Assembly: GCA_045630945.1 (NCBI GenBank)
Contig: JAZQTV010000113.1
Coordinates: forward strand, 8,700-72,699
Direction: 5' to 3'
Source of the DNA: Clostridia bacterium
Lineage (GTDB): Bacteria > Bacillota > Clostridia > Christensenellales > QALW01
Length of the DNA: 64,000 nucleotides
Shown here: piece after piece, positions 23,427 to 26,496 of the stretch
Layout of the letters: each line of letters begins with the position of its first letter
Numbering within the stretch: position 1 is the first letter of the stretch
Notes under the pieces: generated by a model
Database searches by the model: none
What the model saw: only the letters and a program-made list of their open reading frames with translations
What the model was told of the DNA's origin: nothing
Translations under genes and position numbers: made by a program

Positions 23427-24314
23427 ATGAAATGGGAAGATCTTACCTCGCCTGAGTTTGATGAGGCTATTGAAAAATCAAAGGGCGTATGTGTTATGCC
23501 TTTGGGGTGTCTTGAAAGACACGGTGAGCATCTGGTAGTAGGATGTGACAGCTACAGCGCAAATTATATTTCAAACCTTGCGGCAGAAAAGGAGTACGCG
23601 GTAGTATTTCCTGCAGGCTTCTGGCTTGGCGAGGTTATACCTAATCACTCTAACGACCCTGAGCTTTTGAAGAAAAAACAGATCCGCGGTTACGTTTCCA
23701 TAAAGCCTCAGACGCTTTTAACGATTCTTGAAGAGCTTTGCGACGAAATACACCGCAACGGATTTGAAAAAATTCTTATTGTAACCGGTCATGGCGGCAA
23801 TAGTTTTCTGTTAAATCTGTTTGCAAGAGGTATTTTATATGAAAAACGCGATTATGCAGTTTTATGGACAAAACTCAACTTAAATCGCGGTCCCGAGGAT
23901 ATGACTGAATATTATAATCAGATCGTAGCAGATAAAAAACGCTTCGATTACATTACCGATGCCGATCTTGAAGTGCTGAAGCGCTTTGGGGAAACAGGTG
24001 CAGGCGGTGGTCATGCGGATTTTATTGAAGTTGCCGATTTGATCGGACAAGATCCTAAATTAGTGCGTCCTGAAAAATTTTATCAGGAAGGTAAAAGCAT
24101 TCATCGGATGGATCATATAACAAGCTTAGGTATTAACTTTGGAGGCGCGTGGATGGCAGACCATCCCGATGCATATAGCGGTTATGCGCCTATCGGCTGC
24201 AGTGAAACGATCGGCGAAGCTTTTTGTGATCTTGCCTCAGATATCCTTGCAAATAAAATAAAGGCGGTAAAGGAAGACACCGAATGCTTGAAAATAGCAA
24301 GAAGAGAAGACTGA
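23427..24314 (+). CDS. creatininase (creatinine amidohydrolase) family protein
   Basis: MPLGCLERHGEHLVVGCD and ILIVTGHGGN match the family's metal-binding blocks. AAGGAG RBS and TGA stop. Confidence 0.75.
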   Translation: MKWEDLTSPEFDEAIEKSKGVCVMPLGCLERHGEHLVVGCDSYSANYISNLAAEKEYAVVFPAGFWLGEVIPNHSNDPELLKKKQIRGYVSIKPQTLLTILEELCDEIHRNGFEKILIVTGHGGNSFLLNLFARGILYEKRDYAVLWTKLNLNRGPEDMTEYYNQIVADKKRFDYITDADLEVLKRFGETGAGGGHADFIEVADLIGQDPKLVRPEKFYQEGKSIHRMDHITSLGINFGGAWMADHPDAYSGYAPIGCSETIGEAFCDLASDILANKIKAVKEDTECLKIARRED

Positions 24315-24345
24315 GGATAAAATTTTAATACACGGCAAAAAAACA

Positions 24346-24368
24346 AAGGGCATCGTTTGATGCCCTTT
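24346..24368 (+). terminator. hairpin terminator after the creatininase-family gene
   Basis: Stem aagggcatc / gatgccctt with loop gttt and a short T-run. The stem sequence is the same as in the terminator at 19477-19506. Confidence 0.55.
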
Positions 24369-24369
24369 C

Positions 24370-24428
24370 AGAGCACTGACAAACCCTTACAAACATAGCA
24401 CCCTGCAAAATTTTGCAGGGTGCTATTT
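24370..24428. repeat. 59-bp repeat element, copy A (contains a 15-bp perfect-stem hairpin)
   Basis: agagcactgacaaacccttacaaacatagcaccctgcaaaattttgcagggtgctattt. Nearly identical to 38071-38130, with one substitution and one loop indel. Confidence 0.85.
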
Positions 24429-24782
24429 TCATTTTGTATTCTCCTTAGCGGTTCTACAAGAAGCGATCAGCATAACACGCAAAGACGTACATTTTGCAGA
24501 AAGCGCTTTATATGATTGTTCATCGATGTAGTTGGTTTTGTGTAATAATTCAAGCCAATAGCCTGTTTCGCTTGCTTCTTTTAAGGCAATTTCAAGTTTT
24601 GAAACAAAGTCTTTCTTGCCTTGTGCGTACTGTGCTTCATGGATGTTGGCACCGATGCTCGTTCCGCTTCTGCCGATTTGGTTAGAAATAATAGATTCGT
24701 GGTTAGATTTTAAATGCTTTACAAGGTTGATAATATCAATAGAGAATTCCATTGACAGTTCTGCCAGCTTATTTTCCTTCAC
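24429..24782 (-). CDS. four-helix-bundle protein (23S rRNA intervening-sequence protein / Avd-like family)
   Basis: 117 aa; GTG start 7 nt after AGGAGG. IGRSGTSIGANIHEAQYAQGKKDFVSKLEIALKEASETGYWLELL is the hallmark of the TIGR02436-type family (recalled). TGA stop abuts repeat copy A. Confidence 0.8.
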   Translation of the reverse strand: MKENKLAELSMEFSIDIINLVKHLKSNHESIISNQIGRSGTSIGANIHEAQYAQGKKDFVSKLEIALKEASETGYWLELLHKTNYIDEQSYKALSAKCTSLRVMLIASCRTAKENTK

Positions 24783-24803
24783 GTAATCGCCTCCTTTAAA
24801 GAC

Positions 24804-24832
24804 ATTATATCATAAAATCCAGGATATTTCAA
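24804..24832 (-). promoter_or_regulatory. extended -10 promoter of the four-helix-bundle gene
   Basis: Minus strand reads TTGAAA (24827-24832), 17-nt spacer, TGATATAAT (24804-24812). Confidence 0.6.
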
Positions 24833-25002
24833 TGATGCATCGCCTACGGCGATATGATGCATTTGCTTTGCAAATATGATGTTGCTCCACTTCATTTTGC
24901 AATGATGCGATGTTTGCCATAAAATGTGGCGAAGCCACACATCATTTGCGAAGCGAACATCATTAGGCGAAGCCGTCATCATTTGCCGAAGGCAAACATC
25001 AT
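24832..25002. repeat. convergent array of eight ATGATG + short-hairpin units
   Basis: Plus strand has ATGATG at 24832, 24854, 24876 and 24902 (spacings 22, 22, 26). Its complement CATCAT is at 24940, 24958, 24977 and 24997 (spacings 18, 19, 20). Each hexamer sits next to a small hairpin; central palindrome tgtggcgaagccaca at 24925-24939. Confidence 0.8.
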
Positions 25003-25003
25003 T

Positions 25004-25040
25004 CAAAAAACGCACCTTTGTCAGTAGACAAAAGTGCGTT
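25004..25040 (-). terminator. terminator downstream of tRNA-Ala
   Basis: 13-14-bp stem (acgcacctttgtc / gacaaaagtgcgt, one G-U pair on the minus-strand RNA) with loop agta, then a T-run on the minus strand. Confidence 0.75.
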
Positions 25041-25046
25041 TTTTGT

Positions 25047-25122
25047 TGGTGGAGATAGGCGGACTCGAACCGCTGGCCTGTTACATGCGAAGCAACCGCT
25101 CTACCAACTGAGCTATATCCCC
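25047..25122 (-). tRNA. tRNA-Ala (anticodon CGC), CCA encoded
   Basis: 76-nt cloverleaf folded by hand. Acceptor GGGGATA/TATCTCC with the G3:U70 alanine identity pair, D arm GCTC/GAGC, anticodon stem GTTGC/GTAAC with loop TTCGCAT, T loop TTCGAGT. One A49-C65 mismatch at the base of the T stem. Confidence 0.93.
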
Positions 25123-25272
25123 GTTACGCATATTATTTTATCACAAAAAACAAAAAACGCAAGCAAATTATGAAAAAATTAGCAACAATATTTTATCGAA
25201 TTCGACAAATTAGTATGTACTTTCGATTAAATATATGTTATAATATAAAAAAACGTACGGGGAATTGGTAAT

Positions 25273-26496
25273 ATGCGAAGAATATTTAAAATTCTTATTG
25301 CGGCGATAATTTTGCCGTGCCTTCTTTTTGCAGGCTGTGCGAAGAACGTTATTATTGAGGTATACAGTGCCGAAAACAACGTTCTTGTAAATAAACACGT
25401 TAAGGTTGAAACACTTTCGCCTGAGGTTGTGTTGCAGCAACTTTCACTTGCAGGGATGATTTCTGAAAATATTACGGTCAATGATTTTAAAAGTGAGGGC
25501 GGAGATAACGGCAGATATCTTACCATTGACCTTGGCGGTGATTTTACATCGTGGCTTTCCTCGCAGGAAGCATCGCTTCAAAAACTTATTATGCAATCAC
25601 TTGCCAACACCTTTATACATAACTATTCTGCAACGGATATTCTTGTGCTTTCGGACGGCGCGCCCATAAAAACGGGGCTTAATGATTTTTCGGGCAAGCT
25701 TTATTACGTGCAGGTGGGTACGACTCTTGAACAGATAGTAACCACACCGCCTGCAACGGCTGAGGTAATAACACCCACACCAACGCCTGAAATTACCCCC
25801 GAAGCAACAAAAGCACCGGCAACAACACCGGGACAGACACCACAAGGTCCATTTGCAACCCCTGAACGTGCTGAAGGCAAAAAATACGTTGCCATAACTT
25901 TTGATGACGGACCGCACAGTAAATACACCACTATGTTAGTGGACAAGCTTAAGGAATACAATGCTTCGGCAACCTTCTTTATAGTCGGCAACAGGGTTGA
26001 TTCCACTACTGCATCTGCAATAAAGTACGTTACCGATAACGGTTCCGAGCTTGCAATTCACGGCTATACTCATACAAAGTATTACAATAAATGTACCGAT
26101 GCGGAGTTTAAGGAAGAGCTTTCCAAAACTGCCGATGCAATAAAAAATGCCACGGGTACGGTGCCTACCCTCATGCGCCCACCGGGTGGAAGCATTACTA
26201 ACGATCGCGTTAAGGCGTCGGGGTATTCAGTAATACTGTGGAACGTTGATTCTGAGGACTGGAAGCATAAGAAGAACGATCAGTCCGAAGTTGATGCGAT
26301 AGTAAGCAACGTAATGAATAACGTTAGTGACGGAAGTATAGTTTTAATGCACGAATTGTATGAAAATTCGTACAAGGCATTCTGCGTTATAATCGAACAG
26401 CTTTATGCACAGGGATATGAGGTTGTTACGGTTTCCGAACTTTTAGGTACGCAAAATACCGTGCCGGGAACGAAGTATTACAGTGCAAAGAAATAA
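25273..26496 (+). CDS. polysaccharide deacetylase (NodB domain) lipoprotein
   Basis: Lipobox LLFAGC, a Pro/Thr-rich linker and NodB motifs VAITFDDGP, HGYTH and MRPPGG. TAA stop plus terminator. Confidence 0.85.
   Translation: MRRIFKILIAAIILPCLLFAGCAKNVIIEVYSAENNVLVNKHVKVETLSPEVVLQQLSLAGMISENITVNDFKSEGGDNGRYLTIDLGGDFTSWLSSQEASLQKLIMQSLANTFIHNYSATDILVLSDGAPIKTGLNDFSGKLYYVQVGTTLEQIVTTPPATAEVITPTPTPEITPEATKAPATTPGQTPQGPFATPERAEGKKYVAITFDDGPHSKYTTMLVDKLKEYNASATFFIVGNRVDSTTASAIKYVTDNGSELAIHGYTHTKYYNKCTDAEFKEELSKTADAIKNATGTVPTLMRPPGGSITNDRVKASGYSVILWNVDSEDWKHKKNDQSEVDAIVSNVMNNVSDGSIVLMHELYENSYKAFCVIIEQLYAQGYEVVTVSELLGTQNTVPGTKYYSAKK

Follow-up and report, generated by a model that had tools for sequence, protein, structure and literature searches.

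A hairpin-punctuated repeat array at tRNA 3' ends in gut Clostridia as a candidate binding-site array for an Avd-like protein

Results and discussion

The spacer between tRNA-Ala(CGC) and a gene for a small four-helix-bundle (4HB) protein holds eight short repeats in two inverted sets of four, which we propose to be the cognate binding-site array of this adjacent PF05635 (Avd-like) protein, operator-like and punctuated by hairpins; from sequence comparisons we put the probability of this reading at roughly 0.6. Comparison of related loci shows conservation of the arrangement, concerted changes of the repeats, covariation of the repeats with the protein and of paired hairpin arms with each other, a 7-nt register of the repeats, and abutment of the array on the −35 element. 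The original prediction for this DNA had called the arrangement operator-like or iteron-like, and this remains the favoured description, given the covariation of the repeats with two residues of the neighbouring protein and the position of the −35 element at the end of the array. Coordinates are given in Table 1.

Table 1. Features of the module and its immediate surroundings
Feature	Position	Strand	Details
tRNA-Ala(CGC)	25047..25122	-	ARAGORN; Rfam tRNA 60.8 bits; 3' CCA is the upstream module boundary
Bidirectional intrinsic terminator	25004..25045	.	A-run, 19-bp stem, T-run; core TTTGTCTACTGACAAA; terminator scan and inverted repeat search
tRNA-proximal half-array	24940..25002	-	four ATGATG repeats on the gene strand
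ATGATG repeats, tRNA-proximal half	25002..24997, 24982..24977, 24963..24958, 24945..24940		gene strand
Hairpins, tRNA-proximal half	h1 24982-24996; h2 core 24966-24974; h3 24946-24956		h1 tttgcc-gaa-ggcaaa
Hairpin h4	24925..24939	.	tgtggc-gaa-gccaca
Array centre	24908..24918	-	GGCAAACATCG; true symmetry centre
Promoter-proximal half-array	24832..24907	-	four CATCAT repeats on the gene strand (ATGATG on +)
Hairpins, promoter-proximal half	h5 24882-24901; h6 24861-24875; h7 24839-24853		h6 atttgc-ttt-gcaaat; h7 atcgcc-tac-ggcgat
Predicted sigma-70 promoter	24804..24832	-	TTGAAA (24832..24827), 17 nt with TG, TATAAT (24809..24804); 11/12 match
4HB protein gene	24429..24782	-	117 aa; GTG start; AGGAGG 24795..24790; PF05635/TIGR02436, Avd-like
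Flanking bidirectional terminator	24395..24426	.	outside the repeated module; terminator scan

Layout of the array and its flanks

The 171 nt of the array contain eight ATGATG/CATCAT hexamers compared to 0.077 expected (Poisson P(≥8) ~3e-14), the background being the 39 copies, counted on both strands, in the rest of the window (the whole 64-kb stretch of DNA that was analysed). It is the only part of the window with at least six copies of any hexamer per 200 nt. All eight hexamers lie where they were first reported, ATGATG on the + strand at 24832, 24854, 24876 and 24902 and CATCAT at 24940, 24958, 24977 and 24997, at distances of 18–26 nt. The 'central palindrome' of the original prediction, in contrast, is not the centre of symmetry but h4, the fourth hairpin of the tRNA-proximal half. 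The true centre is GGCAAACATCG (24918..24908), which repeats in inverted orientation the 3' portion of repeat 1 and the 5' arm of hairpin 1 (GATGTTTGCC) and thus offers an alternative long-range stem; the same relation to repeat 1 and hairpin 1 recurs with different sequences in other repeat families.

On the tRNA side the array is preceded by an intrinsic terminator, recognizable by its 19-bp stem with 7 GC pairs and its flanking A-run and T-run, which is the first conserved part of the module: its sequence is kept after different tRNAs, with compensatory changes in the outer stem. The terminator beyond the 4HB gene may be the original tRNA terminator. In a 99%-identical strain the contig breaks off within this hairpin shortly before the stop codon of the 4HB gene, consistent with an assembly that stopped at a multicopy module. 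On the gene side, the leftmost hexamer shares one base with the −35 TTGAAA, in line with the overlap first reported, and in 69 of 86 distinct related promoters the end of the last repeat falls between −1 and +2 nt from the −35.

A multicopy module at tRNA 3' ends

The search of relatives recommended with the original prediction recovered the same layout at >130 loci, in Oscillospirales genomes and gut metagenomes. Of 80 genome and 80 metagenome loci, nearly all share the terminator, the 4+4 array, the promoter and the PF05635 gene, in the conserved order tRNA 3' CCA, bidirectional terminator, four repeats, centre, four inverted repeats, sigma-70 promoter, PF05635 gene. Repeat positions are conserved in 55–56 of 59 related arrays in the tRNA-proximal half and in 51–58 of 59 in the promoter-proximal half, and the repeats are lineage-specific and uniform within an array (ATGATG, GTGATG, ATGATA, GTGATA, ATGAAA, GTGAAA or ATGAAT). 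That array, promoter and gene make up one conserved multicopy module had escaped the original prediction. The module adjoins the CCA of 17 kinds of tRNA and of tmRNA in varied genomic contexts, is present more than once per genome and also at contig ends, and has tandem, truncated and geneless units among relatives; left and right half-array variants are co-inherited.

Other copies carry cargo genes that are small, highly variable and translationally coupled to the 4HB gene. Cargo and 4HB gene are mosaic with respect to each other (cargo 96–100% identical, 4HB merely 79–88%), and the breakpoints between them lie at varying positions, as is expected of homologous recombination between conserved flanks and not of a fixed crossover point. 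A blastn search of the 661-bp module against plasmids and phages gave no match, and the module is not phage-borne, because its centre motif occurs in only 3 of 2.9 M viral contigs. The literature on PF05635, TIGR02436, IVS protein, Avd-like proteins and tRNA-linked cassettes contained no description of the array or module, and a tRNA-end module with a repeat array in gut Clostridia is undescribed in the literature searched.

Hairpin spacers and a 7-nt register

The palindromes originally described (h1, h4, h6 and h7 in Table 1) are present as reported. Array palindromes are 13–16 nt long and hypervariable in sequence among relatives, and the spacers of the window array are 12–20 nt. Perfect stems summed over the seven spacers come to 30, compared to 15.3 ± 2.0 in the shuffled controls that had been called for, and 0 of 5000 shuffles reach 30. 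Selection on structure rather than sequence, as first suggested, is well supported: when hairpin arms from the same locus were compared with arms swapped between loci in a permutation test of 59 related arrays, same-locus arms paired better at 7/7 spacers, with many compensatory stem changes. In h4 the sequence varies among relatives while the palindrome is kept, and h7 has numerous compensatory stem swaps among the 59 arrays. The stems are almost purely Watson-Crick, G.T pairs being rare and alike on both strands (3.3% and 3.5%).

Across arrays the spacers range from 10 to 40 nt, and 1 nt is left once the hairpin is removed in 164 of 283 distinct spacers; removal of the hairpins from the sequence thus brings the repeats into a 7-nt register. 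In a subfamily that has lost two hairpins the repeats lie exactly 7 nt apart; contiguous TATCACA/TATCACT heptads at this distance are seen in the G2 subfamily. The placing of the repeats in this register by the hairpins is a feature that the original prediction had missed.

The loops are GNA or GNRA overall and strand-asymmetric, with GNA on the strand where the repeat is inverted; those of the tRNA-proximal half-array are TTC on the gene strand, that is GAA on the + strand, and the two half-arrays are inverted copies of each other, loops included. DNA mini-hairpins whose GNA triloop is closed by C-G (GCGAAGC) are unusually stable.

The adjacent protein and its covariation with the repeats

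The 4HB gene product falls within the PF05635/TIGR02436 four-helix-bundle family by its profile matches (PF05635 99.1 bits, 2e-28, cut-off 33.8; TIGR02436 of NCBIfam 108.4 bits, 2e-31, cut-off 24) and by its fold, the AF2 model having four helices (pLDDT 90.9). PDB 2RLD is a sequence match (9e-30), and Foldseek matches of the model include 2RLD (TM 0.90), 2GSC and the DGR Avd entries 8UB7/4DWL, with TM 0.74–0.79 to 8UB7 Avd chains. Of these closest structures, 2RLD and 2GSC are crystal entries with five chains and DGR Avd is a pentamer, and by analogy with its solved relatives the 4HB protein is probably a pentamer. Exact-sequence look-ups of the 4HB and neighbouring proteins returned no record, and PADLOC defence models gave no match. 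PF05635/TIGR02436 proteins ('23S rRNA IVS protein', 'S23p', Avd-like) are very common in bacteria, and we know of no function for them outside DGRs.

Two residues of this protein track the first base of the repeats. Residue 4 is Asn with A-starting repeats in 84/84 cases and Ser with G-starting repeats in 47/48, while residue 7 is small and hydrophobic with A-type and Arg/Lys with G-type repeats; the window protein, with Asn4 and Ala7, agrees with the A-type repeat upstream. The normalised mutual information between protein columns and repeat base 1, calculated from 111 unique proteins, reaches 0.93 at residue 4 and 0.86 at residue 7, compared to 0.58 for the next best column. Residue and repeat switch together inside three separate clusters of at least 78% identity, and on a protein tree that leaves out residues 1–10 there are ~8–9 co-switches, with 110/111 tips concordant. 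Asn and Ser codons are two bases apart (AAY vs TCN), and Ser is encoded by various synonymous codons. Since A/G switches are found within each repeat-body family, transfer of a linked array and N-terminus from another family cannot explain them. Linkage was likewise rejected as the cause of the residue-4 rule, only residues 4 and 7 standing out among the N-terminal columns. At repeat positions 5–6 many protein columns score high and the covariation is confounded by phylogeny.

As repeats and residues 4/7 have switched together ~8 times, the 4HB protein most likely reads the repeats. The covariation is one of protein–repeat co-evolution, and leaves dsDNA, an extruded cruciform, ssDNA or RNA as the ligand. 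In the AF2 model residues 4 and 7 share one face at the start of helix 1, probably at the barrel end opposite the RNA site of Avd, and the binding mode would therefore not simply be that of Avd, whose RNA site is at its narrow end.

Proposed mechanism

We envisage the array as two inverted groups of four sites, eight in all, each a heptad made up of ATGATG and one further base, with short self-complementary spacers between the sites; were the spacers folded out as mini-hairpins, the sites would come into contiguous 7-nt register. The base at the first position of a site would be read by the start of helix 1: A by Asn4 combined with a small hydrophobic residue at position 7, and G by Ser4 combined with Arg/Lys7. 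The identical reading heads of the probable pentamer would engage the four sites of one half-array, so that two oligomers would occupy each array. Because the array sits between the tRNA terminator and the promoter, with the −35 touching the last site, occupancy most likely controls the promoter, setting (probably repressing) and insulating transcription of the protein's own gene, and in other copies would also control the translationally coupled variable cargo gene. In this scheme we infer physical binding, the oligomeric state, extrusion of the hairpins in vivo and the sign of regulation.

Some observations count against a regulatory role, and promoter control may therefore not be the primary one. 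The gap between array and −35 is 6–40 nt in 17/86 distinct related promoters, D-type arrays have their two halves in reversed order, and some cassettes have a promoter without an array or only half an array. Other observations count against the structural side of the model: stems of 3–6 bp make energetically poor cruciforms in duplex DNA, the strand-asymmetric GNA loops are unexplained by a purely duplex operator, residues 4/7 probably lie away from the end at which Avd binds RNA, and in the first unit of locus L017 the array is followed by a non-4HB gene.

Alternative explanations

A more speculative idea, which we think rather unlikely, is that PF05635 protein, array and terminator form the core of a self-propagating gene-cassette platform targeting any tRNA/tmRNA 3' end. 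An Avd-like pentamer would then grip the array as extruded or single-stranded DNA, with the repeats wound on the barrel end and the hairpins as spokes, and would in this way drive or direct insertion and the exchange of cargo, with no conventional integrase, transposase or RT encoded in cis.

We also consider it unlikely that the array is a folded ssDNA recombination or integration site, functionally attC-like, to which either the 4HB protein or a recombinase acting in trans would bind. The module or its cargo would enter tRNA 3' ends and pass from copy to copy through this site, and its nearness to the promoter would be secondary. Such a site would suit the attachment of the module to so many kinds of tRNA and tmRNA in differing contexts, its multiple and contig-end copies, its tandem, truncated and geneless units, mosaic cargo as diverse as integron cassettes, and pure Watson-Crick hairpins with GNA triloops closed by C-G. 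However, no recombinase, transposase or RT is conserved beside the module and the flanks differ between loci; neither an integron integrase nor a large conserved ORF was seen adjoining the module in relatives. The varying cargo/4HB breakpoints, the co-inheritance of left and right half-array variants and the absence of attC boxes also speak against it, and no empty site or circular form was recovered when orthologues of the flanking creatininase were searched (homologues at 72–74% are not syntenic, and the contig of the 99% strain breaks at the module).

A structured RNA, one of the original suggestions, is improbable. The array would on this account be transcribed by tRNA read-through or as an antisense sRNA, and the 4HB protein would bind (C)AUCAU/AUGAUG on RNA, as Avd-family proteins do RNA stem-loops. 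The region folds well (z about −5), the terminator is bidirectional, and a + strand promoter-like match (9/12, TTGCAA-17-TAAAAT, 24897-24925) could yield a ~110-nt RNA with four CAUCAU-plus-GAA hairpins and the terminator. However, this promoter is present only in the window and in ~1/3 of relatives, and a conserved antisense promoter driving a small RNA was rejected on that count; the sole consensus promoter lies downstream of the array, and a strong terminator stands between tRNA and array. The Rfam check gave only the tRNA above threshold (cmscan of 24000-25600), the best array hits on both strands, at E up to 10, being Tombus_IRE (22.2 bits, GA 45) and Gut-1 (20.9 bits, GA 50). With halves that are inverted copies, loops included, half the units would be wrongly oriented on any single transcript, and some lineages have the halves in the opposite order with respect to the gene. 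The predicted long hairpin lacks covariation, and the strand symmetry of the G.T pairs argues against an RNA from one strand, where G.U-type pairs would be expected on that strand only.

Very improbable is one large cruciform or long hairpin with paired halves that would need no dedicated protein and would serve as terminator, insulator or replication pause site. The 196-nt region does fold whole on either strand (−72.7/−70.8 kcal/mol, z −5.0/−5.6) and contains a 37-nt inverted repeat (70%), but this structure, predicted by folding, was rejected by the permutation test of arms: seg1 x seg7 pairing is no better within loci (−14.02) than between them (−13.98), and seg2 x seg6 and seg3 x seg5 are slightly worse than permuted. 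One-arm stem swaps go unmatched, as in L011, where h7 has become GGC...GCC while h1 is unchanged, and the protein covariation would be left unexplained. As to pairing of repeat i with repeat 9−i, A-family repeats are invariant and single-site deviations uncompensated; the mixed array of the second unit of L028, a single case, fits nested repeat pairing. Finally, chance low complexity of an AT-rich spacer, or genuine coding by the 78-aa ORF (24779-25015) that covers the array, can be dismissed given the hexamer statistics, the shuffle controls and the conservation at >130 loci, and the ORF, rightly taken from the start for the repeat read as protein, has no Pfam match and is no conserved reading frame, because the spacers of relatives differ in length by non-multiples of three.

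Implications

If the array is the binding-site array of its neighbour, one large branch of PF05635/TIGR02436 gains a defined (predicted) ligand and a first functional clue, and a testable rule of recognition (Asn4 with A; Ser4 and Arg7 with G) follows from comparative data by themselves. The cis element would be unusual in that its sites are in register only if the intervening mini-hairpins fold out, and occupancy would thereby depend on DNA supercoiling or strandedness. The module sits exactly at the 3' ends of tRNA genes in hundreds of species of gut Oscillospirales, and, because it carries highly variable, mosaic small cargo, may contribute to gene flux in the gut microbiome by a route so far overlooked. 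The pairing of an Avd-like protein with GNA/GNRA hairpins bears on the question of what reads the target-site hairpin in DGRs, and the cassette platform, if real, would hint at what recognises the GRNA hairpin at these sites.

Comparison with known systems

Two familiar kinds of array are excluded. CRISPR arrays have direct repeats of ~23–50 nt with unique spacers of similar length, whereas here repeats of 6–7 nt in two inverted sets are separated by palindromes of 12–20 nt. Iteron origins combine, on a replicon, iterons of 17–22 bp with a gene for a Rep initiator and a region that is AT-rich or contains DnaA boxes; with its 6–7-nt repeats and no Rep gene, the module is chromosomal and multicopy and has no plasmid or phage match.

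REP/BIME elements and REPINs (RAYT transposases) are groups of short extragenic palindromes, often near terminators, that occur as inverted pairs and have a short conserved motif beside them. The array is likewise an extragenic set of short palindromes with a short conserved motif, inverted sets and a terminator beside it. The module itself has, however, no RAYT/Y1 gene and a fixed 4+4 architecture tied to one gene family, and its unit is 6–7 nt plus a variable hairpin (hypervariable palindromes of 13–16 nt) instead of a conserved ~35-nt palindrome with a GTAG-type motif. Integron attC sites are imperfect inverted repeats that conserve structure rather than sequence and act by folding of single strands. 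The array also keeps structure over sequence, and is associated with very diverse small cassette-like cargo genes, but reading its sequence revealed no R''-L''...L'-R' boxes (RYYYAAC / GTTRRRY), no intI was seen beside related loci, and each unit has its own promoter and terminator, with the array upstream of the promoter whereas attC lies at the 3' end of a promoterless ORF.

The 23S rRNA intervening sequences with an S23p/PF05635 ORF in Coxiella and Leptospira (PMC4990558) resemble the module in being small, selfish-looking elements at a stable-RNA gene with the same protein family. The abstract of that paper mentions no repeat array for them. They lie inside rRNA, whereas the module follows a tRNA 3' end and has its own terminator, promoter and repeat array.

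Omega (ribbon-helix-helix) operators of inc18 plasmids such as pSM19035 consist of direct and inverted 7-bp units (WATCACW) at Firmicutes promoters, and the autoregulatory Omega repressor binds cooperatively at heptads just upstream of or over promoters. The array resembles these operators in having direct and inverted repeats beside a promoter and in the proposed autoregulatory logic. Its repeats are contiguous in G2 only; most arrays have hairpin-interrupted units, 18–26 nt apart in the window, which reach 7-nt register only after hairpin removal. The only conserved gene encodes an all-helical PF05635 protein and not an RHH repressor, and the module is chromosomal and tRNA-linked, unlike plasmid copy-control or partition systems.

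Diversity-generating retroelements (DGRs), with their accessory variability determinant (Avd), offer a further parallel. No ORF of at least 200 aa with YxDD, as in a DGR reverse transcriptase, was found in the 64-kb window. PF05635 resembles Avd (PMC10053308), and the 4HB protein has the same fold and family neighbourhood. The Avd pentamer binds a stem-loop via equivalent residues of all five protomers, at the narrow end of the barrel (bioRxiv 10.1101/2023.10.23.563531), whereas we propose that the array is read by residues 4 and 7, where helix 1 begins. At DGR target sites a DNA hairpin or cruciform is required, with free stem sequence and a 5'-GRNA loop on one strand (PMC3240598), and the array hairpins likewise have free stems and GNA/GNRA loops. 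In contrast to the single stem-loop, the array presents eight short repeated sites, and with its strand-symmetric Watson-Crick stems the partner of the 4HB protein looks like DNA.

Organisation of the locus

The array of eight ATGATG/CATCAT hexamers with mini-hairpins is best supported as a putative binding-site array of the Avd-like protein encoded by the adjoining four-helix-bundle (4HB) gene. All eight hexamers of the original prediction were found in place, and the 78-aa ORF that it dismissed as the repeat read as protein has no match in Pfam.

Features of the locus in order along the gene strand (minus strand of the window)
Feature	Position	Strand	Details
tRNA-Ala(CGC)	25122..25047	-	First part of the locus
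Bidirectional intrinsic terminator	25045..25004		Follows the tRNA
tRNA-proximal half-array		gene strand	Four ATGATG; after each come 1 nt and a mini-hairpin (loop TTC)
Array centre		gene strand	GGCAAACATCG, between the half-arrays
Promoter-proximal half-array		gene strand	Four CATCAT with hairpins, loops AAA or GTA
Sigma-70 promoter		gene strand	11/12 match; -35 TTGAAA has one base in common with the last repeat
AGGAGG, then GTG start		gene strand	Ahead of the 4HB gene
Four-helix-bundle (4HB) gene	24782..24429	-	117 aa, PF05635/TIGR02436
Second terminator	24426..24395		After the 4HB gene; unique flank, outside the repeated unit

The centre (window 24908-24918) reproduces, in inverted orientation, the 3' part of repeat 1 and the 5' arm of hairpin 1 (24991-25000), a relation present with differing sequences in every repeat family (related loci L123, L166, L110 and L127); an alternative long-range stem formed by the centre and this arm would close the tRNA-proximal half. 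The inner stem and loop of the first terminator, TTTGTCTACCnGACAAA, are conserved in sequence across the ATGATG-type (A) family and the G2 subfamily, while its outer stem covaries in the window and related loci, and this conservation exceeds what a terminator needs.

Covariation of protein and repeats

A metagenome scan using an alignment of divergent relatives recovered PF05635 genes only 45–60% identical to that of the window, preceded by the same hairpin-punctuated 4+4 array but built of other repeats (ATGATA, GTGATA, ATGAAA, GTGAAA and ATGAAT). Genes with a repeat beginning in A encode Asn at residue 4 without exception (84/84), and those with a repeat beginning in G encode Ser there in 47/48, while residue 7 is Ala, Val, Leu or Ile with A repeats and Arg or Lys with G repeats. 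With the first base of the repeat, residue 4 has a normalised mutual information of 0.93, residue 7 one of 0.86 and the next column one of 0.58 (111 unique proteins), and the co-switch is found within three separate clusters of at least 78% identity. A simple neighbour-joining tree of this short, recombining protein, built with residues 1–10 left out, implies 8 changes of base 1, 9 of residue 4 and only 9 of the joint state, with 110/111 tips concordant. Two codon positions separate Asn from Ser, and synonymous variation is seen among the Ser codons, so it is the amino acid that is under selection.

Linkage of the 5' end of the gene to the array was rejected as an explanation, since A/G switches occur inside each repeat-body family and the eight copies switch together in situ. 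Contacts of Asn with adenine and of Arg with guanine are ordinary recognition chemistry, which the A/Asn and G/Arg pairing fits. We regard this co-evolution as the decisive result, and put the probability that the adjacent 4HB protein reads the repeats at roughly 0.8.

The AlphaFold2 model of the protein is confident (pLDDT 90.9; helices 2-26, 30-51, 56-82 and 88-114) and places residues 4 and 7 on one common face where helix 1 begins. Among solved structures, the nearest are BT_0352 (2RLD, E 9e-30) and Xcc0516 (2GSC), each with five chains, followed by the DGR accessory protein Avd (8UB7, 4DWL), a resemblance already noted for PF05635 (PMC10053308). Avd is a pentameric barrel whose narrow end is the binding site of an RNA stem-loop, flipped-out bases being touched by the same residues of all five protomers (bioRxiv 10.1101/2023.10.23.563531).

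Relation to the promoter

A sigma-70 match of at least 8/12 (mean 10.4/12) follows the last repeat in 86 distinct sequences, 69 of which have the end of the repeat at -1 to +2 nt relative to the -35. The exceptions are gaps of 6–40 nt, D-type arrays (halves in reversed order), half arrays, and cassette promoters lacking an array. The overlap with the -35 originally noted in the window holds, and the operator-like reading proposed with it gains from both this placement and the co-evolution. That promoter control is the main purpose of the array is a tentative suggestion from sequence, to which we would give slightly less than even odds.

A module at tRNA ends

Scanning one genome per species with the protein as guide gave at least 557 relatives of 82–95% identity in Oscillospirales MAGs, including Acutalibacteraceae, Ruminococcus, Faecousia, Limivicinus and others. 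Nearly all of 80 loci keep the terminator, 4+4 array and promoter in the 260 nt upstream, so the array is not unique to this strain. Among 113 arrays with enough upstream sequence, 92 start directly 3' of the CCA of a same-strand tRNA or tmRNA; 17 kinds of tRNA are abutted, the gene starts a median of 259 nt beyond the tRNA end, and arrays without an adjoining tRNA are mostly second units of tandem modules. Neighbouring genes differ between loci, which have no common flanks. Two copies are present in several MAGs, and many of the matches fall at contig ends. In a strain whose neighbouring creatininase gene is 99% identical, a JGI metagenome contig (L084:4850-4996, aligned to window 24276-24470) stops within the flanking terminator hairpin, just before the 4HB stop codon, consistent with assembly breaking off at a multicopy repeat. 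From this end and the other signs of multiple copies, we place the repeated unit of the window at ~25046..24427. Plasmid and phage collections contained no match to the module, and the centre motif occurred in only 3 viral contigs.

In the window a terminator lies directly 3' of the 4HB stop, whereas relatives (L001-L080) mostly carry one more ORF, whose start overlaps this stop as ATGA in 35/63. This cargo is extremely diverse (nucleotidyltransferase, DUF4279, histidine phosphatase, pyrophosphatase, NUDIX, DUF218, SAM methyltransferase, EEP nuclease, GDSL lipase, glyoxalase, and many small unknown or membrane proteins) and mosaic relative to the 4HB gene, with cargo of 96–100% identity beside 4HB genes of 79–88% (in L001/L015, 100% and 84–85%) and the reverse also seen. 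Cargo-bearing units end just ahead of the next terminator in a pyrimidine-rich motif of ~60 nt with two direct repeats, gtACTTTTAGTCGTTCTTACC and gCACCTTTTAGTCGCTCTTTCGCAAC, between cargo stop codon and terminator; the terminator 5' arm, ACGCACTTTTGTC, resembles a third copy. This right-end motif was seen in L001, L002, L017:3670-3745, L026, L045, L053, L055, L062, L063 and L066, and not in the window.

Approximately 30 near-identical loci from human gut metagenome contigs (L127-L154, L159, L161) combine a GTGATA-type array with a Ser4/Arg7 4HB gene after tRNA-Arg(ACG), a copy apparently fixed in an abundant human-gut species. In an IMG/VR contig (L081:1-130), a further hairpin-punctuated array with repeat ATTTCA is joined to ATGATG arrays that are truncated and to units without a gene, showing that these modules rearrange rapidly. 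Another locus (L028:4760-5180) holds a degenerate geneless array, inverted relative to the adjoining complete module and enclosed by a long split inverted repeat, in which G-type and A-type repeats are mixed in nested-complementary order (G,G,A,A | T,T,C,x).

The first-ranked rival reading is that the array is a folded-DNA recombination site serving the spread of this module.

Hairpins and the form of the nucleic acid

Across 59 arrays of the ATGATG type, 51–58 have the exact hexamer at any given repeat position, and there are 43 distinct sequences of spacer 2 and 37 of spacer 3. Hairpin arms of the same locus pair better than arms swapped between loci in 7/7 spacers (spacer 3, -3.80 vs -1.85 kcal/mol); the local hairpins are therefore real, in agreement with the early suggestion of selection on structure rather than sequence.

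Second among the rivals is an RNA bound by the protein. The stems are nearly all Watson-Crick, with G.T pairs at 3.3% and 3.5% on the two strands (345 distinct spacers), an equal rarity that argues against RNA read from one strand; an Rfam search of the locus returned the tRNA only, and the structured RNA initially considered is thus disfavoured. One large cruciform, the third, is suggested by a predicted long hairpin across the whole array (folding z ~-5), but was rejected because half-to-half pairing within a locus is no better than in permuted loci. Chance, the last, is opposed by both shuffle controls anticipated in the original prediction: 8 of the window's 47 ATGATG copies (both strands) fall inside 171 nt where 0.077 are expected (dinucleotide shuffles; Poisson P ~3e-14), and perfect stems in the seven spacers sum to 30 bp vs 15.3 +/- 2.0 in shuffled spacers (0/5000 reach 30). 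Nowhere else in the window does any hexamer occur six or more times per 200 nt.

The loops are asymmetric, with TNC on the strand that carries the repeat as xTGAyz and GNA or GNRA on the opposite strand. A common hairpin core is GCGAAGC, an unusually stable DNA mini-hairpin. Spacers range from 10 to 40 nt, yet removal of the hairpin leaves exactly 1 nt in 164/283 distinct spacers and 0–3 nt in 223/283, and in one subfamily that has lost two hairpins the repeats lie exactly 7 nt apart, so the repeats would form contiguous heptads once the hairpins fold out.

Returning to binding by the 4HB protein, an oligomer, probably a pentamer, may engage the four heptads of each half-array, with the mini-hairpins extruded either as cruciforms in negatively supercoiled DNA or on DNA that is transiently single-stranded, and the occupied array would control and insulate the abutting promoter. 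This proposed mechanism, like the rest of the analysis, is drawn from comparisons of sequences.

Comparison with known systems

In the literature searched, neither the array nor the tRNA-end module is described, nor is DNA recognition by PF05635 proteins. One large clustering study names '23S rRNA IVP' in a figure legend as one of the domains associated with CRISPR(-like) arrays (PMC10910872), and this entry may represent arrays of the present type, taken as CRISPR-like. The locus fits the definition of none of the omega operator, DGR Avd or target sites, attC, REP/BIME, CRISPR and iteron origins, and is not a DGR since the window contains no RT-like ORF. DGR target sites require a DNA hairpin or cruciform in which the stem sequence is unconstrained and the loop is a strand-specific 5'-GRNA (PMC3240598), rules shared by the hairpins of the array, just as DGR Avd has its fold in common with the 4HB protein. 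In its working, the array is closest to heptad operator arrays, those of the omega repressor being an example.
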